32,000 bases of DNA from Geotalea uraniireducens Rf4. Its GTDB lineage: Bacteria; Desulfobacterota; Desulfuromonadia; Geobacterales; Geobacteraceae. The stretch spans positions 60,001 to 92,000 of the forward strand of contig NC_009483.1 in assembly GCF_000016745.1 (NCBI RefSeq). The letters run 5' to 3'. This document shows, one piece after another, positions 2,065-20,216 of this stretch (the first letter of the stretch is position 1; each line of letters opens with the position of its first letter). Below the pieces are notes generated by a model. The model did no database searches, had not been told where the DNA came from, and worked only from the letters and a program-made list of their open reading frames with translations. The position numbers and the translations under genes were made by a program.

Positions 2065-2226
2065 GAGCCTGTCGGACTTAGGAATGAATCTACTGCGAGA
2101 ACGGCAAATCGGTCCATATTTCCGTAAATTTTCGACAAATAGGTCCACTATTCGCTCTCAAATTTCCGGAAATCTGTCCTCGATTTTCCATTCTCTCGCT
2201 ACGATCACCTAAGTCCGACAGACTCC
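2064..2226. repeat. 163-bp MITE-like element bounded by 19-23-nt terminal inverted repeats
   Basis: GGAGCCTGTCGGACTTAGG(AATG) lies at 2064-2086. Its reverse complement CCTAAGTCCGACAGaCTCC lies at 2208-2226 with one mismatch. They bracket a 121-bp non-coding core with an internal direct repeat CAAAT(C/A)GGTCCA and the perfect palindrome ATTTCCGGAAAT (2162-2173). The element fills the gap between the PBP stop and the next kinase start. Confidence 0.6.
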
Positions 2227-2243
2227 TAAGCAGGCAATAAACC

Positions 2244-3578: not shown

Positions 3579-3690
3579 AAACGCCGACCGGAGATTACAG
3601 ATTTTTCCGCAGATGCCGATATGTGTAAAATCGGCGTATTTCATCGGCGCCCTTATTGGGGAAACCGTGGTTCCAGGTGAAGGAGCAATT

Positions 3691-5016: not shown

Positions 5017-5046
5017 CAATCAATTTCCTTGCGTGGTAGTTTTCCA

Positions 5047-5071
5047 GGCGGTTTCCGCCAATATCCTTTTT
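5047..5071 (+). terminator. Weak candidate intrinsic terminator after the GGDEF gene
   Basis: The hairpin GGCGG-TTT-CCGCC is followed by AATATCCTTTTT. The stem is only 5 bp, so support is weak. Confidence 0.25.
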
Positions 5072-5072
5072 A

Positions 5073-5603
5073 GTGCACACTTGCATAATTTTGCCAAACA
5101 AGCCGACAATTATAAAAAGTGCAGTCGAGAAGGATGACGTCTGGTGGATGGGGAGCGCCATCCGCGAAGCCGAAAAGGCTGCCGAGCGGGGTGAAGTACC
5201 CATCGGCGCAGTCATAGTCAGAGACGGGAAAATTATTTCCAGGGGCTATAACCTGCGGGAGGGGAAGCAGGACCCGGCAGCCCATGCCGAGCTGATAGCC
5301 ATCCGCAAGGCGGCAAAAAAACTGGGTAACTGGCGACTTGCCGGCACGACGCTGTACGTTACCCTGGAACCATGTATAATGTGCATGGGGGCCATACTGC
5401 TGGCAAGGGTCGAAAAGGTCGTATTCGGCTGTTATGATCCCAAGGGAGGGGCGGCCGGTTCCCTTTACGATTTGTCCGACGACAAGCGGCTCAACCATAG
5501 GGTAACCTTGGTTGCCGGGATCAGGCAGGCGGAATGCGCGGCGCTTCTGAGCGGGTTTTTTGCGGCGCTCAGGGCAGAAAAAAAGCGGGCAAAGCTACAA
5601 TAG
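5073..5603 (+). CDS. tadA: tRNA-specific adenosine(34) deaminase
   Basis: The CDA zinc motifs HAELIAIRKA and PCIMCMGAI are present. The N-terminus DDVWWMGSAIREAEKAAERGEVPIGAVIV aligns with known TadA N-termini. The start is uncertain: GTG 5073, TTG 5091 or ATG 5148, none with a good SD. Confidence 0.85.
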   Translation: MHTCIILPNKPTIIKSAVEKDDVWWMGSAIREAEKAAERGEVPIGAVIVRDGKIISRGYNLREGKQDPAAHAELIAIRKAAKKLGNWRLAGTTLYVTLEPCIMCMGAILLARVEKVVFGCYDPKGGAAGSLYDLSDDKRLNHRVTLVAGIRQAECAALLSGFFAALRAEKKRAKLQ

Positions 5604-5613
5604 TTTCACTTTC

Positions 5614-5701
5614 GGAGAGGTGTCCGAGTGGTCGATGGTGCCTGACTCGAAATCAGGTGTACGGCAACGTACCTAGGGTTCGAATCCCTACCTCTCCGCC
5701 A
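5614..5701 (+). tRNA. tRNA-Ser (anticodon CGA) with encoded CCA
   Basis: The acceptor stem pairs GGAGAGG with CCTCTCC. The anticodon stem-loop is CCTGA-CTCGAAA-TCAGG, giving anticodon CGA. It has the long variable arm (GTACGGCAACGTAC) typical of class II tRNAs, a T-arm GGGTTCGAATCCC and a terminal GCCA. It starts 10 nt after the tadA stop. Confidence 0.9.
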
Positions 5702-5710
5702 TTAAATTTG

Positions 5711-5739
5711 CTGTAAAATTAGATATTTAATTTTAACAG
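5711..5739. repeat. 29-nt imperfect palindrome immediately 3' of the tRNA
   Basis: CTGTAAAATTA-GATAT-TTAATTTTAACAG shares the TGTAAAAT half-site with the three palindromes downstream. Confidence 0.5.
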
Positions 5740-5880
5740 CGTCCCTAAAAACCCCCAACTTTCACCAAGAACATTCTGGTAAAAAGGAAGGGGTTTTTCT
5801 TTTGACCTCAACATAATCTTTACCGAAATACCGCAGGGGCAGACCTTCTTGGCCGGAATGGCGCCAGTGCCGAACAGCCA

Positions 5881-6014
5881 AGTGTAAAATTTTTTTACAA
5901 TAAGTCTAAAGCCTTGCCAGACAAGGGTTTACGGGCATGTGTAAAAATTTTTTACAAGAATGTAAAGCCTTGTCCCATGGGCTTCTACGGCGATGTGTAA
6001 AATTTTTTTACAAT
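5881..6014. repeat. 56-57-bp tandem repeat (about 2.3 units), each unit starting with a perfect 17-nt palindrome TGTAAAA-N3-TTTTACA
   Basis: The palindromes lie at 5883-5899, 5940-5956 and 5996-6012. Units 1 and 2 also share a second hairpin-capable segment, AAAGCCTTG...CAAGGGTTT and AAGCC...GGCTT, and an ACGG(G/C)(C/G)AT tail. Confidence 0.85.
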
Positions 6015-6145
6015 ATCTCCACAAAAAATCGCCTCCCATTTATTCTCCTACCTCTGAAATTCCAGAAAACTAAATTTGAAAACTATTGTTTATATTCAGC
6101 TGGTTATTAACTGTTTATTGAATATTTTCAATCTACCTTTCATTT

Positions 6146-6160
6146 TGGCATGCTTTGTGG
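6146..6160 (+). promoter_or_regulatory. Candidate sigma-54 (-24/-12) promoter for the giant gene
   Basis: TGGCATGCTTTGTGG compares with the consensus TGGCAC-N5-TTGC. The -24 element is good, but the -12 element reads TGG rather than TGC. It lies 135-265 bp downstream of the three palindromes, across an AT-rich tract. Confidence 0.3.
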
Positions 6161-6501
6161 TTATATGACAGCTCCTGCTGCCGCGGATAAGGGGCCGGTG
6201 CAGGAGACCGTCTTATTCCAAATCAAGTCGCTATCTTCGTTGGCTCGTCTTCGGCTCCTCAACGTACTATCTGTACGCCTTCGTCGCCTCATTCCTCGCC
6301 GCCTTGATTTCATCCTTGATTTGAAATTGGAATTACAAGTATCCCAGGGGAGAGAAATATTATGGCCGGTAGTCCCTTTCAAGTTTTGAAGAATTCATGC
6401 GCAATGCGCCCGTTGTAAAGCTTTAACGGGTGTAACGGAATATGGTCTTTGACGACCATGGTTGACATGTCATGTGTTTATTTATTGTTCAGGAGGGTTT
6501 C

Positions 6502-9500
6502 ATGTCCCGCTTGTTTGTATTCCTTGCGGCAGTAGCAGCGTTCTTTCTCATGGCTGCGGGCGCCCAGGCCGGCTCTATCCCCGCAGATATGTCGCGATTG
6601 CTTGGCGAGAGCCGTAGCATCGTGTCAGCGATGATCTCCAGGAATGACTCCAGCCAGCCCGCCACAGCCGAACTCTCCCGTCTCTCTGCCCTGAAGGAAG
6701 AGTTGGCCGCCCTGCGTCTCCTCCAGGCCGAGCGCAATGCCACCCTCGACAGCCGTGCCGCCGCACTGGGGGGCAACGCCGCTGACCGTCAGCAATCCGT
6801 ATCCTCGGCACTTCCGCAGGCCCTGGACGATCTGATCAGCCGTCTGGATGTGGTCATTACGAGCGGGGGGAACGACGGCCTTCAGCAGCTCCTCGATGCC
6901 ATCAATCGACTTGTTCCCAAACGTTCCCGCCCGCTTTTGGGAGCACTCCCCTACAAGCACACCAACTATCCCCCCCACGAACCCGCTTCATCACCCGTGG
7001 TCAAGCCCGCGTATAAAGGTGGAGATCACACCGTCTACGCCGCCGATACAGCCGCATCTCCCGAGGCCACCCTGTCGAAGGAGATCGTGGAGCTGGCCCA
7101 GTCTCTGCAGTGGAATCCGGTCCTGATTTACGAATGGGTCAAGAACAACGTGGAGACCGAATGGTATTGGGGGAGCATGAAGGGGGCCGAGGAGACCCTG
7201 CGGCAGAAGAGCGGCAACGACGCCGATCAGGCCAGCCTGCTGGTGGCGCTCTTGCGGGCCGCCAACTTCCCGGCCCGCTACGTCAAGGGGACCATCGATT
7301 TCTTTCCCGACATCGAACGCGCCAGGAACCTGACCGGTCTGGACGATCCGCTTAAGATTGCCGCTTTTTTTCAAAAAGCCGGCATACCTTTCAAGCCGGT
7401 CATTGCCGGTGGAGGAATTACCAACTTTAATATCGAGCACATCTGGGTAGAGGCCTTCATCCCCTACGCCAATTACCGCGGCGCGGTGCTGGACGACCAG
7501 GGCAAGCTCTGGCTCGGGCTGGACACCAGCATCAAACCGCTGGGTTATACCCGTACCCAGGGGGCAGGTGTCCCGGCCGATCTGCTCTCCACTCTGAGAG
7601 ACGACTATTTGAAGGCGACGCAGACGCTCACGCCTCTTGATTATTTCACCGCCAGACTCGACGAGCAGCTCGCATTAAGCCAGCCGGGTATAACATGGAG
7701 CAGCCTCAAGGATACGGCCGTCCTCATCCCGGACGTGCTCAAGATCATTCCCGACAGCATGCAGTTCAATCAGAAAGAGATCACAGGCGAATACCAGTCC
7801 CTGCCGGATGACCTGAAACACAAACTGACCTTCACCGCTACGAACAATGGCAGCGAACTCTTCAGCATTGCTCTCGAAACACACAAACTCTCCAACAGGA
7901 GGCTTGCCCTGCGCGCCGAACCGGAGACCGTCGAGGATCAGAACCTCATCGACTCCTTCGGCGGGCTGGACAATACCCCGGCCTACCTCGTCAGGCTGCG
8001 TCCGGTCCTGACCCTTGACGGCGAGCGCCTGATCGTGGCCCAGGACGGCCTCCCCATGGGGGCCGACTTCACTCTCAATATTGACATCGTCACTCCCAAC
8101 GCTACGGAACGGATCAGTTCCAGCCAGATCATCGGCAACCTGTCCGTGATCGGCGTGGTGGGCCAGAAGGCACGGACTCCTGCCGCCATAAGCGAAAACG
8201 ACGATGCCGAGGCCATCCTGCACAAGGAAGCCATCGGCTACATCGAGCGCTGGAACAGGGCCGAAGACGACCTGTCCGCCCTCATGGGACAGCGCATCTC
8301 CCGCCCCACGGTCACCATCGCCACACTTGGCGGCCAGATGGAGGTGACCACGCTGCTCGACACCCCCCACGACATGCAATGGAAGGGGGTGTACCTGGAC
8401 GCCGGTTACCGGCGGATCGAGAGCGTCGGCAGAAATGGGCAGGAAAAGGAGTTCATGCGGCTGGCCGCATTGCAGGGCTCGATCCTGGAGAACCGCATCT
8501 TCGAAGACGACCTGAAGGTGGATTCGGTTTCCACTGCCAAGCTGCTGCAACAGGCCAAGGCTGGCAATACACCCGTCATTACCGTAGACAAGACGAACGT
8601 GGATGTCATCCTGCCGCAGCTTTTCTTTGACGATGCAGTCAAGGCCGACATCACCAACGCCGTCAACCAGAACCTCACGGTCACCATACCGCAGAACGAA
8701 GTAACCTACCTGGATTGGATCGGCATCGGCTACATCAAGGAAGACGTCAGTAGCGGCGAATCCGGCTGGATGCTTTCCGGGCAGGTGGCCGGGGGGATGA
8801 CAGCGTGGAGCCCTGACCAGTGGGATGCATCGGCAGCAAAAGCCAAGTCCGATGCACTGCGAGCCCCCTTTAGCGGCAAACCGAACACCAATCCCGATGA
8901 AGCGACCTCCATAGTGAAAATACCGATTACCGATCAACAGATAGGGACTGTAGGCCAGCGACCCAGTTCTCGCCTCCAGGTCAAAGTGCTCGACAAGCTC
9001 TTGAAACCGGTCCAAGGCGCATCGGTAACATTCAGCATCAAGGCCGGAGGAGGCACTCTCGGCGACAAGAACGAGACCATCGTCACCATCCAGACCAACC
9101 GCAACGGCATTGCCTCCGTTGCATTGAATCTAGGCCAGAAGACCTCGGACAACCCGGTTTACTGGTTTACGGAAGGGAACACCTACTCCGACCAATACGG
9201 AGCCAACATCATGGATGCCGGACTGGGCAACGGCATAGCCATCGACGCCCCCTTCACCATTTACGGGAAGCCCGGACCGCTGAACAAACTGCGACCGACG
9301 TACGGCGAGACCATGCAGGGCTCCATCCTCTCCTATGTCGGCTTCGTCGGATTGATAGCAGAAGACAGCTACGGCAACCCCATAGCCAACCAGAAAGTGA
9401 CCTTCAAGCTCGGTCAACCGACCGGACCCGGATACTGTGAGAACTATACCTATGACACGACCCCGGCGCTGCTGGTCAAGGAAGGCGACGGCTGCCTGAA

Positions 9501-11754
9501 CACCTTGCCAACTATCAGCGAGGCCAAGGCAACATGCAATAACGCCGCAGCAACCATCACCGACGCAACCAGCGCCAGCGGTCTCTGGGCCGGCGTTATC
9601 CTTGGGGGCGGACCCGACGTCACGTATCCCGTAACCGCCACGACGACCTCGGCAGGCAAAACCTTCACCGCCGAATACACCCCTTCGACCTTTGGCGACT
9701 GCCGCGACCGCACCGCTGAACCAAGCGCTTATCTCGTCGTCACAAGCATAATACCCACCGACATGTACGGCAAGAGAATCAATGCCGCCCGTAGTGGCTC
9801 GACCATCTCCATAATGGCCAAAGAATACCTGATCAAAGAAGGTGAAACTATCGGCGCAGAAGACGCCTGCATCAATAAAATCTGCCCACAAGTAGTTGGC
9901 GACAACACCTACAGCACCACCACCGACCTTGTCGCCCCCGAGGTTGTGTATACCCGCATCTTCCCGACAAACCCGGACGAGCTCTACCCGATCTACCCGC
10001 CCTACGAACAGGTCCCGGCCAACAACCTCGGAAACGGTCTGTTCCAAGGGAACTACACCCTGCAACAGGGCCGTAACAGCATATATATCCAAGGGATCGC
10101 CTCCTACGGCTTCAATCGCTTTAAAAACAGTTGCGCCGGTTGCGCGGAAAAGACCACCACCGAGGTCGTCAAACTGTGGAACTCCGCCAAGGCCATCGAG
10201 GTATATGGAGTTGACATAGCCATCAAACAGCCATTACAGGTCATGCTCGATGGTCAAGGGAGGTCCCGCAATAACCTCAAGATCAGCTATACCATCTATC
10301 CTCTTGAATATCGTGCCATGAACGCCTTTATCCTGCTCTACAAGGTAACAGACCTGCACGGACAGAAGAGCTATGAAGAGATTGACTATATTCCCGTCGA
10401 AAATAAAGGCTCGGGCTTCGGAACTATTGCCCGGGGATACCGATTTGACGACACCCAGAGCTACGCCGTAAAAGTCGTCCTCAACTACGGCAGTTCCGTC
10501 CAGATCATGAGCGATCCGGCGCCGATCACCTTTGTCAAGGGCGCGCTCATCCCCGATTACAACCACGACCGGAAGATCGACCAGGAAGACATCGACAGGG
10601 CAATGAATGGCGATACCTACTACTTCTGGGTGAATGACGATGACGGTAATGGGGATACGGAAGGAACGGGAATCCCGGGGACACGCCCTTATCCGCTGCA
10701 AACGAGCATACCCGGCACCCGTGATCTGGTAGACTGGTTCCCCGTGCAACTCGACATGAAGGGGCTCTTCAATGCCTATCCGCCCGGCGTCTACGACTAT
10801 TTTTTGAGTAACGCCAGCCAGTCGCTTCGCTACGTAAATACCGACCTTGCGCCAAGCGAAAGCGGCACATATCTGACCGATGTCCAGGCAGCCAATGGCC
10901 TGATAGCCAGCCAGGAAATCAAGGCAGTAGCAGCGAATCCGGCCACACCGATCGACCCGTTGTTGATCCAGGCCGTCAGGGACGGCAAGGGAATAATATT
11001 GCTGGAAGCTGTTCTATCGACCAGCAGTTCCTTGAAGCTGCAAATACGCGACCAGGCAGGAGCCCATCGATACGAGATGAGCTTGCCGTTGTCAATCGCG
11101 GGTGTGGAGCAGATGTTCAGGCATAAGAATCTCTCGCAGGATGGAGGAGGGCCAGCCCCCGCAGCCACGGAGGGAGATCGTATCGTACTGCAGAATTTCC
11201 CTTATACCGAGACGAACGACAAACACTTCGTCTTTGTGCACGGATACAACGTTAATCCACAACAGGCCCGAGGCTGGAATGCAGAGATGTTCAAGCGCAT
11301 GTACTGGTCTGGTTCAAAAGCCAACTTTTGGGGTGTGACGTGGTATGGGTGGGATTCACAAAACTTTATGGGACCATGGGATTTTCGCACTGGAAATTAT
11401 CACATCAACGTACAACATGCCTTCAAAACAGCACCTGCATTCAGTGACTTCATTAATCTGCCGCTAGGAGGCAAAGATGTAACAGTGGCAGCTCACAGCC
11501 TGGGTAATATGCTCGTTTCAAGCGCAATAAATGATTGGGGTGCTAACGTTAGCAAGTACTTCTTGGTTAATGCAGCTGTAGCACTCGAAGCATATGGAGA
11601 TGCAGATAAAGACCCCAATATGGTGCATCCCGATTGGAATGACTACGATCAGAGGCTCTTGGCGTCTGAGTGGTACAACTTGTTCTCCGTTTCCGATGGA
11701 AGATCAAAACTTACGTGGCGTAATCGATTTGCAAATCCCTCTGTGCCAATATAA
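6502..11754 (+). CDS. Giant secreted multidomain protein: transglutaminase-like core, invasin/Big_1-like Ig domains and a C-terminal alpha/beta-hydrolase (lipase/esterase-like); 3' end interrupted by IS3-family insertion
   Basis: The ATG at 6502 has AGGAGG 5 nt upstream. The signal peptide is MSRLFVFLAAVAAFFLMAAGAQA. The transglutaminase-fold signature is GNDADQASLLVALLRAANFPARYVKG...EHIWVEAFIP...WLGLDTS. Big_1-like repeats include LQVKVLDKLLKPVQGASVTFSIKAGGGTL. The hydrolase part has FVFVHGYNV and the nucleophile elbow AAHSLGN (Ser codon 11497-11499). The stop at 11752 lies 1 nt before the IS end. Confidence 0.8.
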   Translation: MSRLFVFLAAVAAFFLMAAGAQAGSIPADMSRLLGESRSIVSAMISRNDSSQPATAELSRLSALKEELAALRLLQAERNATLDSRAAALGGNAADRQQSVSSALPQALDDLISRLDVVITSGGNDGLQQLLDAINRLVPKRSRPLLGALPYKHTNYPPHEPASSPVVKPAYKGGDHTVYAADTAASPEATLSKEIVELAQSLQWNPVLIYEWVKNNVETEWYWGSMKGAEETLRQKSGNDADQASLLVALLRAANFPARYVKGTIDFFPDIERARNLTGLDDPLKIAAFFQKAGIPFKPVIAGGGITNFNIEHIWVEAFIPYANYRGAVLDDQGKLWLGLDTSIKPLGYTRTQGAGVPADLLSTLRDDYLKATQTLTPLDYFTARLDEQLALSQPGITWSSLKDTAVLIPDVLKIIPDSMQFNQKEITGEYQSLPDDLKHKLTFTATNNGSELFSIALETHKLSNRRLALRAEPETVEDQNLIDSFGGLDNTPAYLVRLRPVLTLDGERLIVAQDGLPMGADFTLNIDIVTPNATERISSSQIIGNLSVIGVVGQKARTPAAISENDDAEAILHKEAIGYIERWNRAEDDLSALMGQRISRPTVTIATLGGQMEVTTLLDTPHDMQWKGVYLDAGYRRIESVGRNGQEKEFMRLAALQGSILENRIFEDDLKVDSVSTAKLLQQAKAGNTPVITVDKTNVDVILPQLFFDDAVKADITNAVNQNLTVTIPQNEVTYLDWIGIGYIKEDVSSGESGWMLSGQVAGGMTAWSPDQWDASAAKAKSDALRAPFSGKPNTNPDEATSIVKIPITDQQIGTVGQRPSSRLQVKVLDKLLKPVQGASVTFSIKAGGGTLGDKNETIVTIQTNRNGIASVALNLGQKTSDNPVYWFTEGNTYSDQYGANIMDAGLGNGIAIDAPFTIYGKPGPLNKLRPTYGETMQGSILSYVGFVGLIAEDSYGNPIANQKVTFKLGQPTGPGYCENYTYDTTPALLVKEGDGCLNTLPTISEAKATCNNAAATITDATSASGLWAGVILGGGPDVTYPVTATTTSAGKTFTAEYTPSTFGDCRDRTAEPSAYLVVTSIIPTDMYGKRINAARSGSTISIMAKEYLIKEGETIGAEDACINKICPQVVGDNTYSTTTDLVAPEVVYTRIFPTNPDELYPIYPPYEQVPANNLGNGLFQGNYTLQQGRNSIYIQGIASYGFNRFKNSCAGCAEKTTTEVVKLWNSAKAIEVYGVDIAIKQPLQVMLDGQGRSRNNLKISYTIYPLEYRAMNAFILLYKVTDLHGQKSYEEIDYIPVENKGSGFGTIARGYRFDDTQSYAVKVVLNYGSSVQIMSDPAPITFVKGALIPDYNHDRKIDQEDIDRAMNGDTYYFWVNDDDGNGDTEGTGIPGTRPYPLQTSIPGTRDLVDWFPVQLDMKGLFNAYPPGVYDYFLSNASQSLRYVNTDLAPSESGTYLTDVQAANGLIASQEIKAVAANPATPIDPLLIQAVRDGKGIILLEAVLSTSSSLKLQIRDQAGAHRYEMSLPLSIAGVEQMFRHKNLSQDGGGPAPAATEGDRIVLQNFPYTETNDKHFVFVHGYNVNPQQARGWNAEMFKRMYWSGSKANFWGVTWYGWDSQNFMGPWDFRTGNYHINVQHAFKTAPAFSDFINLPLGGKDVTVAAHSLGNMLVSSAINDWGANVSKYFLVNAAVALEAYGDADKDPNMVHPDWNDYDQRLLASEWYNLFSVSDGRSKLTWRNRFANPSVPI

Positions 11755-11810
11755 GTGAGACACTTACCTCCCCTTAAATTACTGTAGAGGGTGGGGAGGA
11801 AAGAAAGGAT

Positions 11811-12314
11811 ATGACCATCAGTAATGTGAAGCGCATCCCGGTAATTGCAGGAGCCCGTAAGGCGAGTGCAATTACCGGGATGGCCCCCGAAGATTTAACT
11901 CGGCAACAGCAGGAATTGACTACCTCACCGCCTGACCCGGAGGTAGCGGAAAAGCCTGTACGCAGGCGTTTCACGGCTAAGTACAAACTTGACATCCTAA
12001 ACCAAGTCGACTCTTGCACCAAGCCCGGTAGCCTGGCAGCGCTATTACGTCGAGAGGGGCTTTATGCTTCCAACCTCAACACCTGGCGCCGCCAGCGGGA
12101 TGAAGGAAGCCTTGCGGCGCTTACGCCCAAGCAGAGGGGCCGTAAAGCGCTAAAGCCCGATCCCATGGCCGTCGAGAACGAGCGACTGCGCAAGGAGATT
12201 ACCCGCCTTGCCAAACGCCTCAAACAGGCCGAGTTGATCATCGATGTCCAAAAAAAAGTCTCGCAGATCCTGGGGATCACCTTGGATACGCCGCCAGAGA
12301 GCGAGAGCGACTGA
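11811..12314 (+). CDS. IS3-family transposase OrfA (HTH / leucine-zipper part)
   Basis: The product is 167 aa. It contains RRRFTAKYKLDIL...LLRREGLYASNLNTWRRQ and a coiled region ENERLRKEITRLAKRLKQAELI. The gene ends in TGATG, which overlaps the orfB ATG. Confidence 0.85.
   Translation: MTISNVKRIPVIAGARKASAITGMAPEDLTRQQQELTTSPPDPEVAEKPVRRRFTAKYKLDILNQVDSCTKPGSLAALLRREGLYASNLNTWRRQRDEGSLAALTPKQRGRKALKPDPMAVENERLRKEITRLAKRLKQAELIIDVQKKVSQILGITLDTPPESESD
12251..12257 (+). promoter_or_regulatory. Programmed -1 ribosomal frameshift slippery heptamer A AAA AAA
   Basis: An A8 run lies at 12250-12257, near the end of orfA. The orfB frame is open from here to the ATG at 12314. This is the canonical IS3-family OrfAB fusion mechanism. 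Confidence 0.7.
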
Positions 12315-13312
12315 TGGAAGCTGTCGAAATACTTGCCCCTGATGTGGGCACCGATCCTGCCTGTAAAGCTCTTGGTGTTTCCCGTGCCGGGCTGTATCGC
12401 AGGCGCGCAATCAGCAAGACAGCGCCGCGTGTACCCCAAAAGCGCCCTGTGCCGCCACGGACCTTGCCATCAGAGGAAAGGCAGGCAGTACTCGATATTC
12501 TGCATTCCGAGCGCTTTCAGGACAAGGCACCCCATGAGGTGTATGCAACGCTTTTGGACGAAGGGGCCTATCACTGCTCGATCCGCACGATGTATCGAAT
12601 TCTCGAAGAAAACGCCGAAGTCAAAGAGCGGAGAAATCAGTTGCGGCATCCCGACTACAAAAAGCCTGAGCTTCTGGCAACGGCCCCAAATCAAGTCTGG
12701 TCGTGGGATATTACCAAATTGATGGGGCCTGCTAAATGGTCCTATTTTTACCTCTATGTGATTCTCGATATCTTCAGCCGCTATGTGGTCGGCTGGATGG
12801 TTGCAACCTGCGAGTCGTCGGAACTGGCCAAACGGCTGTTCAAAGAAACGTGTGAGAAACAAGTCATCCAGAAAGGGCAGTTAACGATCCACGCCGATCG
12901 CGGCTCTTCCATGAAATCCAAGCCGGTAGCTTTTCTGTTTGCTGATCTGGGGATCACTAAAACGCACTCAAGGCCCTATACGAGCGACGACAACCCATAT
13001 TCGGAAGCCCAATTTAAAACGCTGAAATATCAGCCTGATTTCCCGGAAAGATTCGGCAGTATAGAAGACGCAAGATCGTTCTGCCAAACCTTTTTCCCCT
13101 GGTATAACCAGGAACACAAGCATTCCGGCATCAGCCTACTTACACCTGAAGTAGTACATTACGGCAGAGCTGAGGAAGTCATCCGATCAAGGCAAACCGT
13201 GTTGACTGCTGCTTATGCAGCCCATCCTGAACGCTTCGTCAGGAAAATACCATTACATAAACCGTTACCGGAAGCGGCGTGGATCAACCCGCCAAAACCG
13301 GCCACTAGCTAA
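12314..13312 (+). CDS. IS3-family transposase OrfB (rve/DDE integrase core)
   Basis: The product is 332 aa. It contains WSWDITKL...YLYVILDIFSRYVVGW...IHADRGSSMKS...SRPYTSDDNPYSEAQFKTLKY, typical of DDE(35)E IS3 transposases. Confidence 0.9.
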   Translation: MEAVEILAPDVGTDPACKALGVSRAGLYRRRAISKTAPRVPQKRPVPPRTLPSEERQAVLDILHSERFQDKAPHEVYATLLDEGAYHCSIRTMYRILEENAEVKERRNQLRHPDYKKPELLATAPNQVWSWDITKLMGPAKWSYFYLYVILDIFSRYVVGWMVATCESSELAKRLFKETCEKQVIQKGQLTIHADRGSSMKSKPVAFLFADLGITKTHSRPYTSDDNPYSEAQFKTLKYQPDFPERFGSIEDARSFCQTFFPWYNQEHKHSGISLLTPEVVHYGRAEEVIRSRQTVLTAAYAAHPERFVRKIPLHKPLPEAAWINPPKPATS

Positions 13313-13358
13313 AATTCGCTACACTAAATTCGACAGGTAAGTGTCTCAAAGTCATTGA

Positions 13359-14018
13359 CAGATTCCGAATCTTCCGAAAGATAAGCTCTATAACTATTTT
13401 TCATCAGGCGATGAGGTCTTCCAGGTGCATCCAAATACAGATCTTAATGGTGCCCCTGACTTACCTGGCCTGGAAGACTTTAATAGTGGGAAACTGCTCG
13501 ATATTATTCATATTGGCAGATATTCCTGGTCTCTTCAGGAAAAGCTAAAAGGGCGCATGATTGTAGAAGGGTGGACAGGTAGCACGTATGGCGGTTGGGG
13601 ATTCAATTTGAATGATTATGCCAGTGGCCAATGGAAAGACCTGCCCATTTCTGCTTCACTTGCAAATTTGCTTACTCCTGAGCAGCTTAAGCAAAAACCA
13701 TTCTTTAAGATAAGAACAGCTGATATCAACTTGCTGGACCCTGTGAGTGGAAGTCAGTTTGCGCTTGATAACCGTGACAGGCTCTTGGCAGAAGCTATAC
13801 CGGCAAGAACTGGTGCGGCAGGAAGGAATGTAGTAAGTAGTTTTCCTAATAATACTGATATGCAGGTAAAATTTATTAAAACAGTTGGCAGTATTGTTTG
13901 GCCAAGAAAGAGTATTCAATTTAACAATATTTGGCTCCATAGTGATATCAGGGAGATGGCATATCCATATATTTACTCATTGTTCGATCACTTTGTCCTC
14001 AAGGGAGGCTTTAAATGA
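13359..14018 (+). pseudogene. Detached C-terminal part of the alpha/beta-hydrolase domain of the giant protein
   Basis: The frame is open from 13359, 8 nt past the IS3 target duplication. There is no plausible independent start or SD. KLYNYFSSGDEVF (candidate acid Asp codon, 13410-13412) and NIWLHSDIREMAY (candidate His codon, 13938-13940) would complete the triad begun by AHSLGN upstream of the IS. Confidence 0.7.
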
Positions 14019-14977
14019 TAAAATACGGCTCGGTTTGTATCTTGATTATTCTTTTCATGAGTGGCTGTATTTTGAGTAACTATTACATAAATATTGCAAA
14101 AATAACGGTTAAAGTTGTTGATGAACATGGGAAAACTGTTAAAGGGGCAGCTGTAAGTATTGCTTCATTTACTGGAGTCGGTGGGAAAAAAGAAAATTCT
14201 GTAGATGGCTATACCGATGACAATGGCCTATTTACCGCAACTCTGAGTGGAACAAACGAATACTCGTTGACTGCCAGTAAGGATAATTACTATGTAAATG
14301 GATTAGCATATAAGTTCAAAGAAGATAAATTTAAGCGTTGGCAGCCCTGGAATCCTAAAATACAGATAGTACTGTATAAAATCGGCAACCGTGTTCCTAT
14401 GTATGCGCATGACACCGAAGAATCAAAGATTGAAATACCAGTAATAGGAAAGAAGGCTGGTTTTGATTTGATTGAATTCGACTGGGTGCGCCCGTATGGC
14501 AGGGGTGTTCATCCAGATATGATCTTCAAACTTGATAAACAATACACCGATTGGGACAATTTCAAAAGTAAATTAACGGTTTCATTTCCAAATAGGTATG
14601 ACGGGATTCAGTTGATAAAGCAAGAACGCAGCATTGGCAGTGGGCTTAAATTGGCAAGATTTGCTCCTGAAGATGGTTATCAGAATGAAATTACACATTA
14701 TAAAGAAAAGATTCCAAATACGCCTTTGAAAACAAGTTTTAAAGAAGATAACAATTATTTCTTTCGAGTCAGATCTGAAGTGAAGAATGGAAAGCTGGTC
14801 AGGGCCATGTACGGAAAAATTTATGGTGATATTGTCTTCGAGCCAAGAGGTTCAAAGACTGCATCTATTTTGTTCAAATACTTCCTAAATCCTGATTACA
14901 CCAGAAATATGGAGTTTGACCCACAACGAAACCTGTTTACAGGTTTGAGTGATCTTGAACGAAATGGGCTGCAATGA
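14015..14977 (+). CDS. Lipoprotein with N-terminal carboxypeptidase-regulatory-like beta-sandwich; candidate cognate immunity or partner protein
   Basis: The product is 320 aa. The lipobox is MIKYGSVCILIILFMSG|C. ITVKVVDEHGKTVKGAAVSI resembles a CarboxypepD_reg-like motif. The ATG overlaps the upstream stop in ATGA. It is a paralog of 15182..15952. Confidence 0.75.
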   Translation: MIKYGSVCILIILFMSGCILSNYYINIAKITVKVVDEHGKTVKGAAVSIASFTGVGGKKENSVDGYTDDNGLFTATLSGTNEYSLTASKDNYYVNGLAYKFKEDKFKRWQPWNPKIQIVLYKIGNRVPMYAHDTEESKIEIPVIGKKAGFDLIEFDWVRPYGRGVHPDMIFKLDKQYTDWDNFKSKLTVSFPNRYDGIQLIKQERSIGSGLKLARFAPEDGYQNEITHYKEKIPNTPLKTSFKEDNNYFFRVRSEVKNGKLVRAMYGKIYGDIVFEPRGSKTASILFKYFLNPDYTRNMEFDPQRNLFTGLSDLERNGLQ

Positions 14978-14981
14978 CTAG

Positions 14982-15185
14982 TTTAGGCTTTACATGGAGG
15001 CTGGGTCTGGACGCTCTTCACATGGTCGTCACATGAATTACAAAAACAAAAATGGCTGGCCACCTTCAAGAAGTGTGGATAATGAAAGCAAAAAGTGGAA
15101 ACATAGTGATCTTCGCGAGATAGCTTATCCATATGTATTCGGTTTATTTGATAAATTTACCTCTCAAGGGAAGTTGGACAAATGA
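14982..15185 (+). pseudogene. Orphan remnant of a second hydrolase C-terminus
   Basis: GWPPSRSVDNESKKWKHSDLREIAYPYVFGLFDKFTSQGKLDK aligns with the last ~40 aa of 13359..14018 (VWPRKSIQFNNIWLHSDIREMAYPYIYSLFDHFVLKGGFK). The frame opens only at 14982. It has the same ATGA overlap with the following lipoprotein gene. Confidence 0.7.
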
Positions 15186-15952
15186 AAATATTAATTCCAT
15201 TGTTTTGTTGTTTTGTTACGTTGTGCAGTTGCTCAATTGAATTTCTTCTTCCAGAAGGTTGTATCACCATTATGGTTATAGATGAAGAAGGAAAACCAAT
15301 GGAAGGTATTAATGTTGGAATCGGATTTGAAAAAAATACTGGTTCAGGAACAAAAGGTATACCTGTGAGGGGCGTAACCGATTCAATGGGAAAATTTACT
15401 GGTAAGCATAATACACTAGAGGGTGTCCAGTACCGTGCTTATAAAGGGGGGTATTATGAAAGTTCTGGCGAGTATAGATTCAAAAATGAAGTTGGAAAAA
15501 AATGGCAACCCTGGAACCCGGAAATAAAATTGGTTTTGCGCAAAATAGAGAAACCTGTACCTATGTATGCAAGGCAGTTTGTTGGTGTTTTGCCATTGAA
15601 AGACAAAGACATCGGATGCGACTTGATAGCCAATGATTGGGTGAAACCATATGGAAAGGGTACTCACAGCGATATTATCTTTCATCTGAGGAAGCGGTAC
15701 GTAGATGACAGCGATTACAGTGCCGATTTACTGATCAAGTTTTCTGGCAAAAATGACGGTTATATAAAATATGACTTGAACATGTACAACGGCAGTGAAT
15801 TCAAGCTGCCAAGATATGCCCGTGTTGATGGGTATGCAAAGCAATTCGTGCGGCATGTTATCAGACCGCCGGGCAGATCACTCCAGGACGACCGAAACGA
15901 TAACATCGGTTATGTCTTCCGGGTGAGATCATCCGGCTCCTCGACGAATTGA
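15182..15952 (+). CDS. Paralogous lipoprotein (second candidate immunity protein), 3'-truncated by the ISL3 end
   Basis: The lipobox is MKILIPLFCCFVTLCS|C. Blocks shared with 14015..14977 include KKWQPWNPEIKLVL, PVPMYA, DWVKPYGKGTHSDIIF and YVFRVRS. Homology stops at RVRSS, where the ISL3 inverted repeat begins (15935). The paralog continues for ~65 more residues. Confidence 0.75.
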   Translation: MKILIPLFCCFVTLCSCSIEFLLPEGCITIMVIDEEGKPMEGINVGIGFEKNTGSGTKGIPVRGVTDSMGKFTGKHNTLEGVQYRAYKGGYYESSGEYRFKNEVGKKWQPWNPEIKLVLRKIEKPVPMYARQFVGVLPLKDKDIGCDLIANDWVKPYGKGTHSDIIFHLRKRYVDDSDYSADLLIKFSGKNDGYIKYDLNMYNGSEFKLPRYARVDGYAKQFVRHVIRPPGRSLQDDRNDNIGYVFRVRSSGSSTN

Positions 15953-16020
15953 GTGGGTAGCCTGGGCCGGGTTGATGTAAGATAGGCCACCATCACTCAG
16001 CCTGGAGGTTAGTAATCGCT

Positions 16021-16659
16021 ATGAATCCTGAAGATCTTTTTGGTGCTGCTCTTGGAATTGCCATCCCGTGGAAGGTTACCTCTGTTGACTTCAACAAGAA
16101 GTCAAGTCGTTTGGACATAACCATCGACTTCCAGCGGGGAGCCACCTTTCCCTGTCCGGTCTGCGGAACGTTGTCACCAGTCCATGACACCACGGAGAAA
16201 GAGTGGCGGCATCTGAATTTCTTCCAGTACGAAGCCTACCTTCATGCGCGTGTTCCACGGGTAAAGTGCCCTAACAGCGACTGCGGCGTGAAGTTGGTCC
16301 AGGTACCCTGGGCTCGCGCAGGCTCAGGATTTACGCTGCTGTTTGAGGCCCTGGCCATGACCATGGCTCGTGATTTGCCGGTGAAGGTCATGAGCAGGCT
16401 GTTTGCCGTTACCGATACCCGTCTATGGCGGTTGATTCAATCCTATGTCGAGAAGGCAAGGGCCGCAGAAGACTTCTCCGAGGTGAAGAGGGTCGGTGCG
16501 GATGAAACCTTTGCCGGGCGCAGTCATGACGAGAAATTCGTCACCTTCTTCTTCGACCTCGACATGCATAAGCTCTTGTTCGGCACGACGGGAAAGGACA
16601 ACGAAACAGTCAAGAGCTTCGTCGCGGACCTTAAGTCACATGGCGGCGATCCTGATAGC
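16021..16659 (+). pseudogene. ISL3-family transposase, N-terminal fragment
   Basis: The zinc-finger part is CPVCG...CPNSDCG. It is followed by an HTH region and the start of the DDE domain (VGADETFAGRSHDEKFVTFFFDL). The stop at 16660 is supplied by the first bases of the inserted IS21 element. Confidence 0.85.
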
Positions 16660-16776
16660 TGATCAACGTCAACTATTTTTCCCGGTCAACGACAATTATA
16701 ATTCCCGTTTTAAGTGCGGTAGCAGAAACGGAGGGAGCCCGTAGGGCGACCTGCGTTTCCGCTACCAAGCGAACCG

Positions 16777-17028
16777 CTACTCGTGCTGCTGCATAAGCTC
16801 TTTTGCCTTTTTCTGGCTATAGTCAATATCCGCCCTCGATATGTCATACAGCCAGATTGGATACGTATTATCGAGGGCTTTGATGAGAAGCCCGCCGTCG
16901 AAATCCGTGATAGTGGCGACAACACGGGTATTCTCACTGTTTTCGAACCAGGTCGTATTCTCTGCCGTGAGATCCACATCGAGCGTTTCCAGTCGGCCTT
17001 TTTGAGGATTATATACCGTGAATTCCAT
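16777..17028 (-). CDS. 83-aa hypothetical protein, passenger ORF inside the IS21 element
   Basis: The SD AAGGAG overlaps the istB stop (TAAGGAG) and lies 10 nt before the ATG. The ORF is located between istB and the terminal inverted repeat. I recognise no motif in it. Confidence 0.55.
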   Translation of the reverse strand: MEFTVYNPQKGRLETLDVDLTAENTTWFENSENTRVVATITDFDGGLLIKALDNTYPIWLYDISRADIDYSQKKAKELMQQHE

Positions 17029-17042
17029 ACGTTCTCAGCTCC

Positions 17043-17870
17043 TTAACCCGCCGTGTTTTGTTCCTGCGGCTCTGCTTGAGCCGATTGGACAGCAACGGTT
17101 TCCTTTGATTTTTGGGATTGCTCCAATCTGTAACTGGATAAGTTCAGCTCCAGGATAACGCTGTGATGGACCAATCGGTCAATTGCTGCTGCCGTGGTCA
17201 TGGGATCTTTAAAAATCTGCTCCCATTTGGAGAACGGCAAATTGCTGGTGATCATTATGCTGCTGCGCTCATAGCGGTCGGCAAGAAGAGTGAAGAGAAC
17301 TTCCATCTCTTCCCGGCTTTGCTGCACGTAGCCGATGTCGTCAATGATCAGGGCTTCATACTTCGCGTACTGCTTGAGAACACGCGCCAGTTTCAGGTCC
17401 CGTTTCGCGATCAGAAGTTCCTGCACCAGCAGGTTGCAGGGGATAAAACGGATCTGCCGTCCCTGGTAAATCAACTCCTGAGCGATCGCGCATACGAGAT
17501 GAGTCTTGCCGCTGCCGGGATTGCCAAATGCCAGTACGTTCTCTCTATGCTCAAGAAAGTCTCCTTTCAACAGGAGATTGAGCTGTGCATCCACCTTCCG
17601 GGGCAGACGCTTGCGGTCAAAGGCTTTCAGACTTTTTTCCAAGGGAAGTTTTGATTCCCTGAGCAGGCGGGCAATTCGATTGTTTTGCCGGTCCTCACAT
17701 TCGCGTTCGGCTAATTCATAAAGATAGGTTTCGTAATCCCAGTTGTCTCGCCGGGCATTGATGGCCTCGTCCTGATAGCAGCGCCGCACGGTGGGCAAGT
17801 GTAACTCTTTGAGGCGCCGGTCCAGGCGGCCGGCTTTTTCACCTTCACACTGCATATGACACCTCCTCAT
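17043..17870 (-). CDS. istB: IS21-family helper ATPase IstB
   Basis: Walker A is GNPGSGKTH and Walker B is LIIDDIGY, in a DnaA/IstB-like AAA+ layout. It overlaps the end of istA. The true start may be the Met at codon 6. Confidence 0.9.
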   Translation of the reverse strand: MRRCHMQCEGEKAGRLDRRLKELHLPTVRRCYQDEAINARRDNWDYETYLYELAERECEDRQNNRIARLLRESKLPLEKSLKAFDRKRLPRKVDAQLNLLLKGDFLEHRENVLAFGNPGSGKTHLVCAIAQELIYQGRQIRFIPCNLLVQELLIAKRDLKLARVLKQYAKYEALIIDDIGYVQQSREEMEVLFTLLADRYERSSIMITSNLPFSKWEQIFKDPMTTAAAIDRLVHHSVILELNLSSYRLEQSQKSKETVAVQSAQAEPQEQNTAG

Positions 17871-19353
17871 TCAACAGGAGACGATCATAAGCGGCCAGGT
17901 CCACCTGAGCGATACTGACTTCGGCAACAGGGGACGGCGGCTGTTGTTTGTGAAGGATTTCTTCCACGGCACAGGCAGTGATCGGTTGCCGGCCGCAGAG
18001 ATCAGAAAGGGCTGCTCCTACGGCTGTTTCGCTCTCCATGGCTGCCATGCGCAATATTTTTAGGTATTCCCTGACGGCCTGCTGCGGCGTATGCCGCTCT
18101 TTGAGTTCATCATAGGCAAGCCGGAAATAGCTGCCGGGAAACATCTCTTCCCGGTAGCGGTAGTTCTCGAACGCCCCCGGCTTACGCTCCAGTTGGTCGA
18201 TCATGTGCCGGTAATTGATCAGATGCCGATTTTCCCCGCGCAAGCGGGGAAGCGTGTCCACACACTTTTGGGCATAGAAAAGATCGAGATGTTCGGCAAA
18301 AAGGTGAACCTGAATGGTTTCACCGATCAATCTGCTTTCAACCGAGTAGACGTTGTGGTTGACGCGGATGGTGCTGCTCGGGCCGACGCTGACGGATAGG
18401 CGCTTGCAGCTTTCCAGGCGCTGATCCGGGAGGCTGTGCAAGACCCGTTGTTCTTCCAGAAACCGTTCACGGCGGCCGCTGTTTAATCTGGCGAAGAGTT
18501 TTTTCAGAAATTGCTTGTAGTCGTCGAGAGTGGCGAAATCAGCGCCTCCTCGCAGCAACAGAGCCTGCTGGACCGCTTTTTTGAGCCGATAGTTGCTCTG
18601 CTCCACATCTCCATTTTCATTGGGGCTTGCTGCCTGTGTTTTGCGCCCGGTGAGTCCGTAGTGTTTGAGCAGCGCCTGGTAGCGTTGGGTAAATTCATCC
18701 GGGTGCAGGGCTTTTTGCACCGCTGCCGTCAGCCGGTCTGTCTGGTGAGTCTGCGGCACACCGCCCAGTTCCCATAATGCGGCCTGTAGCCCTTCGCTGA
18801 GGCTTTCGAAGCTTTCTGAGAAGCAGACGCTGCCCGTTTCCCAGTTGGAGTAGGTCAGCACAAAATGATACAGCAGATGGTCAAATGGCTGATTGGCGAT
18901 GGTGATTCCCAGTTTCTCCATGTGTGTGTAATCCGACTGCGCCAGTTCGCCGGGGCGGTGCAGTTGGGGGAAAAAGATTTCCTGGGAAGGCCCCTCCAGG
19001 GCACGCCAGCGCTTAATCCGTCGCTGGAGAGTCCGTAATTGCCCGTCCGAAAACTTGCCGGGAAAGCGGTTCTGCAAGTCATCGAAAAGAGTTTTTGCTT
19101 CAAATCCCGGATTTGAAGCAAGGTTTTCGCGGACTTCATCCCAAATGTCTTCGAAAGGATCTGGCCGGGTCCGCCATGTTCGCTCTTTTATGAGCTCACT
19201 TGGCAACCTGCCTGTCTTTAGATACTTTCGAGCAGTTTTTTCGTCCATGCCAGATTTGGCTGCGGCTACAGCTTGTGTTTTTTCCGTTTGCATCAGCTTG
19301 AATAACCTCCTTACCTGTTGATCAGTTACCATCCGTGCCATCCTTTTTTCCAA
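17845..19353 (-). CDS. istA: IS21-family transposase IstA
   Basis: The product is 502 aa with an N-terminal HTH (AAAKSGMDEKTARKYLK) and a DDE core region (AQSDYTHM...LTYSNWE...). It lies upstream of and overlaps istB. Confidence 0.88.
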   Translation of the reverse strand: MEKRMARMVTDQQVRRLFKLMQTEKTQAVAAAKSGMDEKTARKYLKTGRLPSELIKERTWRTRPDPFEDIWDEVRENLASNPGFEAKTLFDDLQNRFPGKFSDGQLRTLQRRIKRWRALEGPSQEIFFPQLHRPGELAQSDYTHMEKLGITIANQPFDHLLYHFVLTYSNWETGSVCFSESFESLSEGLQAALWELGGVPQTHQTDRLTAAVQKALHPDEFTQRYQALLKHYGLTGRKTQAASPNENGDVEQSNYRLKKAVQQALLLRGGADFATLDDYKQFLKKLFARLNSGRRERFLEEQRVLHSLPDQRLESCKRLSVSVGPSSTIRVNHNVYSVESRLIGETIQVHLFAEHLDLFYAQKCVDTLPRLRGENRHLINYRHMIDQLERKPGAFENYRYREEMFPGSYFRLAYDELKERHTPQQAVREYLKILRMAAMESETAVGAALSDLCGRQPITACAVEEILHKQQPPSPVAEVSIAQVDLAAYDRLLLNEEVSYAV

Positions 19354-19435
19354 AGATGGTGGATAGTTTACAATTCCACAAATTACCGGGAATTATAATT
19401 GTCGTCAGGCGGGAGTTTTAATTGTCGCTGATCAT

Positions 19436-20044
19436 GATAGCATCACAGACGCTGCTATTGACATGTCCAAGGCATTCATAAAGGGTGTCAAAGAGCAGTT
19501 GCCCCATGCCGTGGTCACCTTCGATAAATTCCACGTCATCAAGCTTATGAACGATAAGCTTAGTAAGATAAGGGCTCAAGAAGCCAGGTTATTTCCTGAA
19601 ATCCTGAAAAAGAGCAGAAACCTGTTCCTCAAAAATCCAGAGAACCTGACACCGGAAGAGGAACAGCGCCTGGATGCCATTATCACCAGTCAAAGCTTAA
19701 GGAGTACGGAAGCTTACATGCACAAGCTGAACCTTCAGAACGTCTATTTTGCTTCAAGCCGAACGGAGGCAGAAACCCTGTTGACCAAATGGCATCGGAA
19801 AGCCGCCGCAAGCTCAATCCAACTCATCAAGAACATGGCCGAATCTGTAAAAGAGCATTGGGATGGCATTCTGGCACATTTTGAAAGCGGCCTGACTAGC
19901 GGCTTCATTGAGGGCATCAACAGCCTAATTCAATCAGCCAAAACTCGGGCACGAGGCTATCGGAATCCTGACAACTTGATCTGCATGGCTTATCTGGTTG
20001 CAGGCAAGCTCAACCTAAAGTCGCTATTCCCTCTACCCACTTGA
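19436..20044 (+). pseudogene. ISL3-family transposase, C-terminal fragment
   Basis: AITDAAIDMSKAFIKGVKEQLPHAVVTFDKFHVIKLMN...RARGYRNPDNLICMAYL is the DDE_Tnp_ISL3 C-terminal half. It resumes directly after the IS21 target duplication but is offset by 1 nt from the N-terminal fragment's frame. Confidence 0.85.
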
Positions 20045-20058
20045 TTCGTTGCAGAGCC

Positions 20059-20216
20059 GGTTTCATCGAGGGTATCAACAGCCTCATCCAATCAGCCAAA
20101 ACTCGGGCACGAGGGTATCGGAATCCTGACAACTTGATCTGCATTGCTTACCTGGTTGCAGGCAAGCTCAACCTTAAATCGCTATACCCTCTACCCACTT
20201 GATTCGTTGCAGAGCC
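20059..20216 (+). mobile_element. 158-bp right-end fragment of a second, diverged ISL3 copy
   Basis: It aligns with 19901-20058 with about 11 substitutions (about 93 percent identity by eye). It includes the terminal inverted repeat ...CCCTCTACCCACTTGATTCGTTGCAGAGCC. It abuts the full copy on its left and the giant gene on its right. Confidence 0.85.

Follow-up and report, generated by a model that had tools for sequence, protein, structure and literature searches.

The stretch of DNA analysed here (the window) comprises 32,000 nucleotides of Geotalea uraniireducens Rf4 (contig NC_009483.1, positions 60,001 to 92,000 of the forward strand). It harbors a giant gene whose predicted exported product ends in an α/β-hydrolase, a lipoprotein gene (LP1) directly behind it, and then an orphan hydrolase tail followed by a second lipoprotein gene (LP2). 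An initial annotation had likened this layout to that of polymorphic toxin loci, in which an effector C-terminus and its immunity partner are followed by displaced copies of both. The features of the locus, in window coordinates, are the following (L numbers denote loci compared, and P numbers proteins):

6472..11737, plus strand: 5′ part of the giant toxin-like gene (open reading frame (ORF) and translation, Pfam matches, stop-free rejoined translation)
7072..7470, plus strand: transglutaminase-like core, residues 201-333, predicted inactive (Pfam Transglut_core; alignment to 3isr)
10540..11100, plus strand: pre-domain, residues 1357-1543 (AlphaFold2 (AF2) model, Foldseek, homology common to scaffolds)
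11101..11133, plus strand: junction motif GVEQMFRHKNL, residues 1544-1554 (boundary between conserved body and exchangeable cassette in L088/L089)
11092..11737, plus strand: N-terminal half of the hydrolase, hidden Markov model (HMM) positions 1-220 (E 4.9e-113)
11738..13367, plus strand: insertion sequence (IS) of the IS3 family (HTH_Tnp_1, rve, rve_3; inverted repeats; empty site in L001)
13368..14018, plus strand: C-terminal half of the hydrolase, HMM positions 219-432 (E 4.9e-83; stop codon at 14016..14018)
14015..14977, plus strand: LP1, a predicted lipoprotein of 320 residues and putative cognate immunity protein, intact (ORF; lipobox FMSGC)
14996..15185, plus strand: start of the orphan cassette (synteny with L001 ends after 14995)
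15182..15934, plus strand: LP2, a paralogous lipoprotein gene, truncated (36% identical to LP1, E 3e-46)
15935..20060, plus strand: ISL3-family element truncating LP2 and split by an IS21 element, outside the system (inverted repeats, transposase Pfam matches)

The ORF annotated on the interrupted giant gene (6472..11754) encodes 1,760 residues. Once rejoined (6472..11737 plus 13372..14018), the gene yields a protein of 1,970 residues with zero internal stops, in which a signal peptide, a transglutaminase-like domain, a β-rich/Ig-like body, the pre-domain and the hydrolase follow one another. The N-terminus reads as signal-peptide-like in the translation (MSRLFVFLAAVAAFFLMAAGAQA, then GS), and the annotated ORF displays weak Pfam matches to DUF900 and Abhydrolase_6 at residues 1579-1736, in keeping with the Sec-exported giant protein ending in a GxSxG hydrolase that had first been described. 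That description also gave the protein a scaffold of transglutaminase and Big_1 domains. The former is present (Transglut_core, residues 201-333, 46.9 bits), whereas the Big_1 match stays below threshold (27.1 versus 34.9 bits). The catalytic Cys of the transglutaminase is replaced by Asp250 (7219..7221; GNDADQA versus GVCRDFA in 3isr) while its His and Asp, as read from the sequence, are seemingly kept; the domain is predicted to be inactive.

The hydrolase is interrupted by an IS3-family element, assigned as such by its orfA (11811..12314, helix-turn-helix (HTH)), its orfB (12314..13312, DDE rve), its inverted repeats and a short target duplication (the 4-bp AATC at 11734..11737 and 13368..13371). 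An IS-free allele is found in L001, a metagenome contig in which the segments corresponding to 10605..11737 and 13368..14995 are contiguous, with nucleotide identities of 96.5% and 99.0%. Since this contig joins both halves without a gap, the inserted segment is 11738..13367, and its removal gives ...TWRNRFANLPKDKLYNYFSSGDEVF..., in agreement with homologues. With the IS boundary at 13367, the C-terminal part of the hydrolase begins at 13368 and not at the GTG codon at 13425. The remainder of the hydrolase therefore does lie beyond the insertion, as had been proposed, with boundaries corrected by L001. When the element is cut out instead at its perfect 14-bp inverted repeats (11756..13348, with an apparent AAG duplication), stops remain in every frame, and these limits were replaced by those given above.

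An AF2 model of the last ~614 residues (pre-domain and hydrolase), built with 60 sequences, reached a predicted local distance difference test (pLDDT) score of 90.8 and a predicted template modelling (pTM) score of 0.92. The pre-domain, which forms the first ~190 residues of the model, resembles the N-terminal Ig-like domains of peptidylarginine deiminase (PAD; Foldseek match to PAD3, 7d56, E 6e-6) and is located directly 5′ of the hydrolase on every scaffold compared. In some relatives (P0241-P0249), the PAD-N-like pre-domain is repeated in tandem, with two or three copies ahead of the hydrolase. The GVEQMFRHKNL motif that follows is nearly invariant in two family alignments. The hydrolase itself is modelled as a divergent α/β-hydrolase of ~430 residues with a large insertion (AF2 model and Foldseek), and this fold is predicted with high confidence.

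The catalytic triad was assigned from conservation, counted over 85 full-length hydrolase domains, and from position relative to the predicted strands. The nucleophile Ser1676 (11497..11499), in the elbow AHSLG, is conserved in 85/85, as are an acidic residue (D/E) at Asp1769 (13410..13412), within SSG[D/E], and His1945 (13938..13940), within WxHSD, with Asp1947 nearby. The HG oxyanion motif, at His1590 (11239..11241), is kept in 81 of the 85. The Asp and His candidates singled out earlier, in YFSSGDEVF and WLHSDIREMAY, coincide with the invariant positions of Asp1769 and His1945, and a Ser-acid-His triad is predicted. In Pfam, the rejoined domain scores marginally above the cut-off for DUF900 (PF05990; 21.8-22.6 versus 20.5 bits), a family also matched by 45 of 60 relatives. 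DUF900 and Abhydrolase_6 are the only families matched at E up to 1; DUF2235, DUF3274 (both Tle-type), PGAP1, Lipase_3 and DUF676 give no match to the domain at this threshold, and a single relative out of the 60 has a weak PGAP1 match (E 0.001). Judged by Pfam, the hydrolase of the window is not of the Tle1-4 type. A PDB sequence search with the hydrolase profile returned nothing meaningful, and NCBIfam holds no model matching any part of the locus. For the hydrolase, the most likely activity is that of an esterase or a lipase, with envelope lipids as the predicted substrate.

LP1 starts within the hydrolase stop codon (ATGA), an overlap pointing to translational coupling; the lipoprotein gene that had been placed right behind the hydrolase is thus present as described, with its ORF and its FMSGC lipobox. 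The protein is 99% identical in L001 and belongs to a family of ~320-residue proteins (the LP family). Its AF2 model (pLDDT 89.6) is all-β after the signal helix and comprises a transthyretin/Ig-like β-sandwich and a second all-β domain; Foldseek retrieves structural neighbours for the first domain only, all generic transthyretin/Ig-like sandwiches.

Further downstream, the orphan tail (15021..15176) encodes 50 residues matching positions 382-431 of the hydrolase HMM (E 5e-14), WKHSD included, and corresponds to the remnant of the hydrolase C-terminus previously sized at ~45 residues. Its stop codon overlaps the start of LP2. The paralogy of LP2 with LP1 stands, whereas the extent once given to it (15182..15952) does not, the gene being cut at about residue 251 of ~311, where ISL3 begins (left end at 15935). 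LP2 is matched at 100% identity by a 226-residue G. uraniireducens protein. The tail is 60% identical over 25 residues to the main hydrolase tail, and it is closer to the tail of the full-length giant of L091 (68%) than to that of the window (47%). Together, as one unit, tail and LP2 are 77% identical at the nucleotide level to the hydrolase-tail and LP segment of the full-length transglutaminase-type giants of L090 and L091. These identities indicate that the pair is an orphan displaced from the cassette of another full-length lineage. In this genome, IS3 has inactivated the toxin-like gene and ISL3 has inactivated LP2, and LP1 alone is intact; it could still act as a stand-alone immunity gene.

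Beyond the window, 79 hydrolase-encoding loci were recovered by scanning one genome per species; they belong to Nitrospirota, Geobacteraceae/Desulfuromonadales, many Verrucomicrobiota, Kiritimatiellia, Lentisphaerae, Acidobacteria, Chlorobi and Bacteroidota (Chryseolinea). When HMMs built from the scan matches were used to score all loci, and hydrolase 3′ ends with at least 400 nucleotides downstream were taken, an LP-family gene was found within 300 nucleotides 3′ of the hydrolase end in 99 of 100 cases. At ~25 loci, arrays are observed, made of repeated full hydrolase and LP pairs, of a 3′ hydrolase fragment with an LP, or of extra LPs. Those bearing orphans include the window (15021..15934), L008, L020, L021, L047, L060, L062, L068, L086 and L089, so that the order first noticed here, a C-terminus with its partner and then a displaced C-terminus with its own, is a recurrent one. 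In L003, L072 and the window, LP has been kept after loss of the hydrolase.

The last ~630 residues (pre-domain and hydrolase) are the sole region common to the scaffolds. Upstream of them, the scaffolds range from fewer than 100 to more than 3,000 residues and are adhesin-like and mutually unrelated, with TSP3, β-helix, Laminin_G, Big, cadherin-like, PKD and IgGFc-binding domains. Of 51 complete scaffolds, 34 start with a signal peptide, as judged by a simple heuristic. The LP partners also appear to be exported, a signal-peptide-like start being present in all 100 family members inspected. That they are lipoproteins, as had been assumed, holds for LP1 and about 35% of the family, in which a lipobox-like Cys is present (35 members), whereas the others display ordinary signal peptides. 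A search with the pre-domain profile among 1.84 billion representatives yielded 1,980 clusters at 50% identity.

The only recurrent neighbour of the cassettes is a gene for an IS200-like Y1 transposase (PF01797), found directly after LP at 11 of ~70 independent loci, which may be linked to cassette mobility. Its sites include L008 12580-13536, L009 7949-8641, L019 12424-13413, L053 12428-13372, L090 9149-9814 and others. Some of these transposases carry a DnaA_C-like HTH; they are often sited between the main pair and the orphan, and they also adjoin the cassettes of G. anodireducens.

The exchange of cassettes is best documented by L088 and L089, in which the giant genes share 97.9% nucleotide identity over ~4 kb up to LSIDGVEQMFRHKNL; the proteins are identical through LSIDGVEQMFRHKNL and then immediately unrelated, with hydrolases 35% and LPs 41.5% identical beyond that point. 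Variable cassettes behind a conserved body are thus observed, with a sharp junction. Downstream in L089 lies a displaced copy of the L088-type hydrolase and LP, at 99% identity, the chimeric 5′ end of which has its own GVEQMFRHKNL. G. anodireducens SD-1 (L086, CP014963), an isolate with a completely sequenced genome, displays the same arrangement, which is therefore not an assembly artefact. L086 also contains a long decayed array (1283-8960), in which three LP genes are interleaved with hydrolase fragments (HMM positions 123-391, 375-432 and 1-101/89-432) and an IS (DDE_Tnp_1), and whose layout speaks for repeated cassette turnover at one site.

Other comparisons suggest that a smaller exchange unit exists. 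In the two copies of L021 (5381-7773 versus 11618-14022) and between L005 and L088, hydrolases are nearly identical (95% and 88%, respectively) and LPs divergent (61-71% identical), and the differences cluster at the hydrolase C-terminus (last ~80 residues) and in the N-terminal half of LP. These two segments would constitute the unit, and likely the interaction surface of the partners. The orphan of the window (tail and LP2) matches the extent of this unit. Across 64 triplets, LP divergence tracks that of the hydrolase (partial r 0.53) over that of the pre-domain (partial r 0.20), figures that are merely indicative since the pairs are non-independent. With the 99/100 linkage, this covariation is that of a hydrolase and an LP behaving as one exchangeable cassette.

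We propose, with a probability of roughly 0.65, that the locus is a decayed Sec-dependent polymorphic toxin-immunity system, with the hydrolase as toxin and LP as its antidote. Comparative genomics supports such a polymorphic-toxin-like interpretation of the pair, whose recurrence in many phyla has the genomic signature of an unnamed toxin-antidote family. In this scheme, the intact gene would produce a 1,970-residue exported protein whose Ser1676/Asp1769/His1945 hydrolase is the predicted toxic domain, attacking envelope lipids as an esterase or a lipase. Exported LP1 would inhibit the cognate hydrolase by binding it in the periplasm, shielding the producer and its kin. Recombination right after GVEQMFRHKNL, or inside the last ~80 hydrolase codons, brings in a new hydrolase/LP allele and pushes the old 3′ fragment and its LP downstream as an orphan, the tail and LP2 of the window being one such case. 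For an archaeal DUF900-type secreted hydrolase, bactericidal phospholipase activity has been reported (bioRxiv 10.64898/2026.06.10.730825), which makes a membrane-lytic role plausible, not proven.

A wider proposal, to which we give even odds, is that polymorphic envelope-lipase toxins exported by Sec form a large, so far unrecognised family in Desulfuromonadota, Nitrospirota, phyla of the Planctomycetes-Verrucomicrobia-Chlamydiae (PVC) group, Acidobacteria and Bacteroidota (~2,000 pre-domain clusters). Its members would share an exported β-sandwich immunity protein, giant adhesin-like carriers and cassette exchange at the VENN-like GVEQMFRHKNL, possibly aided by Y1 transposases. Literature searches returned no description of this hydrolase/LP cassette. 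The new elements are the putative toxin/partner family, the pre-domain and the junction motif, carried on adhesin-like scaffolds in phyla little known for such systems.

Several observations weigh against a toxin-immunity function. Toxin diversity is low: among the top 141 pre-domain proteins, 138 share one hydrolase family, and the other three end in a PGAP1/DUF676-like lipase (P0324), another DUF900 hydrolase and an unknown 432-residue domain (P0248). Classical polymorphic toxins, by comparison, display many unrelated C-terminal toxin domains per scaffold. No secretion or transport partner is conserved among the flanking genes clustered in ~70 loci, and without conserved delivery machinery no route is known by which a Sec-exported giant could reach the periplasm of a neighbour. 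Foldseek aligns the hydrolase model only weakly with monoacylglycerol lipase, cutinases and esterases (query TM score at most 0.2, normalised to the 614-residue query). As for the partner, LP1 resembles no Tli and no other known immunity protein among Foldseek structures, sequence searches of Pfam, NCBIfam and PDB assign it to no family and to no known immunity protein, and its family is well conserved, with many invariant residues. One hydrolase, that of L055 (9200-21138), has no LP; this locus encodes a 658-residue protein (signal peptide, pre-domain and hydrolase), the stop of which overlaps the start of a 3,321-residue surface-type protein. Lastly, the giant protein and its G. anodireducens orthologue are 57% identical overall, and the hydrolase (60-76%) is among the best-conserved parts. 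The absence of a break between body and C-terminus in that pair first argued against polymorphism; the closer pair L088/L089 showed the break.

Some of these points are shared by the main rival to the toxin-immunity interpretation, which we consider unlikely, although it is the strongest of the alternatives: a variable surface enzyme. The giant would then be an adhesin or exo-enzyme whose C-terminal hydrolase acts on environmental or own-surface polymers, LP would serve in the envelope as an anchor, a dock or a self-inhibitor required solely while the giant crosses the periplasm, and exchange and silent 3′ copies would provide antigenic or phage-receptor variation, in the manner of pilS-type silent cassettes. 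The adhesin-like nature of the scaffolds (TSP3, cadherin-like, Big, PKD, Laminin_G) fits this view, as do the lack of conserved delivery machinery near the loci, the single dominant hydrolase family in place of many toxin types, the conservation of LP, with an Ig/transthyretin-like domain typical of surface proteins, and the vicinity, at the Geobacter locus, of another giant surface-type protein. However, the triad is strictly kept, and variation peaks around the catalytic His and in the N-terminal half of LP, a contrast that an arms race between enzyme and inhibitor explains better than simple docking. Furthermore, extra LP-only copies and LPs outlasting the hydrolase (L003, L072 and the window) are typical of immunity genes, and in orphan cassettes it is LP that stays intact, not the enzyme.

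A second alternative, which we judge quite improbable, is that LP is a helper for periplasmic folding of the hydrolase, akin to the lipase-specific foldases (Lif/LipB). Lif genes lie directly 3′ of lipase genes in the lipA-lif operons of Pseudomonas and Burkholderia, and the strict linkage, translational coupling and envelope anchoring or export of LP are reminiscent of this organisation. Lif is, however, a membrane-anchored α-helical scaffold, whereas LP is all-β in its model and has no Pfam foldase match; nor does a foldase predict cassette swapping, arrays of orphan 3′ fragments with LPs, or tandem LP paralogues. Finally, that the tail remnant and LP2 are accidental debris of IS-driven duplication or deletion, with no functional meaning, is very improbable: the window does hold at least five IS copies, two of them within the locus, and both the giant gene and LP2 are inactivated, but the tail and LP2 are not copies of the main tail and LP1 (47-60% and 36% identity), they correspond, taken together, to the cassette of full-length genes found at other loci, and the fragment and LP pattern recurs in many phyla without these ISs.

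The IS copies of the window include elements of the IS3, ISL3, IS21 and IS1595 types. The ISL3 element that truncates LP2 is delimited by inverted repeats at 15935-15960 and 20033-20060, and an IS21 element (16660..19434) interrupts it, with istAB on the minus strand and inverted repeats of its own at 16660-16707 and 19387-19434; a solo second copy of the ISL3 right end is found at 20191-20216. This insertion explains the missing 3′ end of LP2 and the missing downstream genes. In the IS-free relatives L001, L088 and L091, LP is followed by a secreted ORF of 121-125 residues and then by a giant CARDB/FlgD_ig/SQHop_cyclase_C protein, which reaches 5,555 residues in L091 and 5,903 in L001. Beside ISL3 in the window, ~6.6 kb, the small secreted ORF and the 3′ end of LP2 are gone, and a 1,746-residue ORF (20144-25384, homology from 20192) represents an internal fragment of that giant, from about residue 2200. 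The fragment is interrupted again by an IS1595-type element (25416-26372). Upstream of the giant hydrolase gene, signalling proteins and a tadA-like deaminase are encoded, and no secretion genes. This deaminase (176 residues, 5073-5603) matches the MafB19-like deaminase Pfam family (E 8e-41) and dCMP_cyt_deam_1; its size and context make it look like a housekeeping TadA rather than a toxin domain.

If these are indeed toxin-immunity pairs, interbacterial antagonism would reach environmentally dominant and little-studied phyla, such as the Geobacter relatives, Nitrospirota, Verrucomicrobiota and Kiritimatiellia, through cassettes now annotated merely as "hypothetical" or "alpha/beta hydrolase". 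The hydrolase is a candidate new envelope-targeting toxin fold with its inhibitor, and GVEQMFRHKNL is a handle for finding further cassettes. The question is then raised of how a Sec-exported giant surface protein delivers an enzyme to the envelope of a neighbour. Should the larger family be real, contact- or surface-mediated delivery would operate in diderms independently of the known type V, VI and VII secretion systems (T5, T6 and T7). In Geobacter bioelectrochemical communities, strain competition could hinge on the cassettes and orphan LP genes carried.

Among known systems, the locus shares with MafB/MafI of Neisseria and WapA/WapI of Bacillus the signal-peptide export, the polymorphic C-termini, the adjacent immunity genes (putative in the window) and the silent or orphan cassettes. 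MafB and WapA differ by their N-terminal domains (DUF1020 and RHS/wall-binding, respectively), by their mostly nuclease toxins and by cytoplasmic immunity proteins. With CdiA-CT/CdiI and Rhs-CT/RhsI it has in common a conserved body, a short junction motif, a variable C-terminus with a linked partner, and displaced orphan arrays; GVEQMFRHKNL is the analogue of VENN in CdiA or of PxxxxDPxGL in Rhs. In contrast, the two-partner secretion (TPS) domain, filamentous haemagglutinin (FHA) repeats, CdiB, YD repeats and PAAR of those systems are lacking in the window, all variable alleles come here from one enzyme family, and the partner is predicted to act outside the cytoplasm. A TPS domain, FHA repeats, the VENN motif and a cdiB neighbour were also sought without success in eight other scaffolds. 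As noted at the outset of this work, PAAR, Rhs/YD, VENN, haemagglutinin and type VI secretion system (T6SS) families are absent from the Pfam matches of the window proteins.

The T6SS Tle/Tli pairs likewise associate a GxSxG α/β-hydrolase with an adjacent periplasmic or lipoprotein partner, and display tandem partner paralogues. The Tle families comprise DUF2235, DUF3274, PGAP1-like and phospholipase D (PLD) enzymes. The window, however, contains no T6SS genes and no VgrG, PAAR or Hcp context; its hydrolase, the C-terminal domain of a giant protein, would rely on a signal peptide for export and has no DUF2235 or DUF3274 match, and the LP fold matches no solved Tli. The Tox-ABhydrolase-1/2/3 domains are described as associated with T6SS modules or with immunity proteins of the SUKH, Imm66 and Imm69 families (Zhang et al. 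2012, Biol Direct 7:18; PMC3482391), and not with an exported β-sandwich partner; it is by these described linkages that the hydrolase of the window is set apart from them.

The same survey describes, in its section 19, Sec-dependent polymorphic toxins with an inactive transglutaminase right after the signal peptide and, occasionally, bacterial Ig domains. The locus resembles them in its signal peptide, Cys-less transglutaminase, Ig-type body, C-terminal enzyme, adjacent partner and displaced cassettes. It differs in that no RHS/YD repeats are detected by Pfam, the transglutaminase starts ~190 residues after the signal peptide, a PAD-N-like pre-domain and the GVEQMFRHKNL junction precede the enzyme, a DUF900-related hydrolase, and the partner is an exported β-sandwich outside the Imm families listed in PMC3482391. 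The delivery scaffold that the initial annotation took for a possibly undescribed one thus belongs to a known type, of which it is a variant lacking RHS repeats, and the cassette that it carries is found on many unrelated scaffolds as well.

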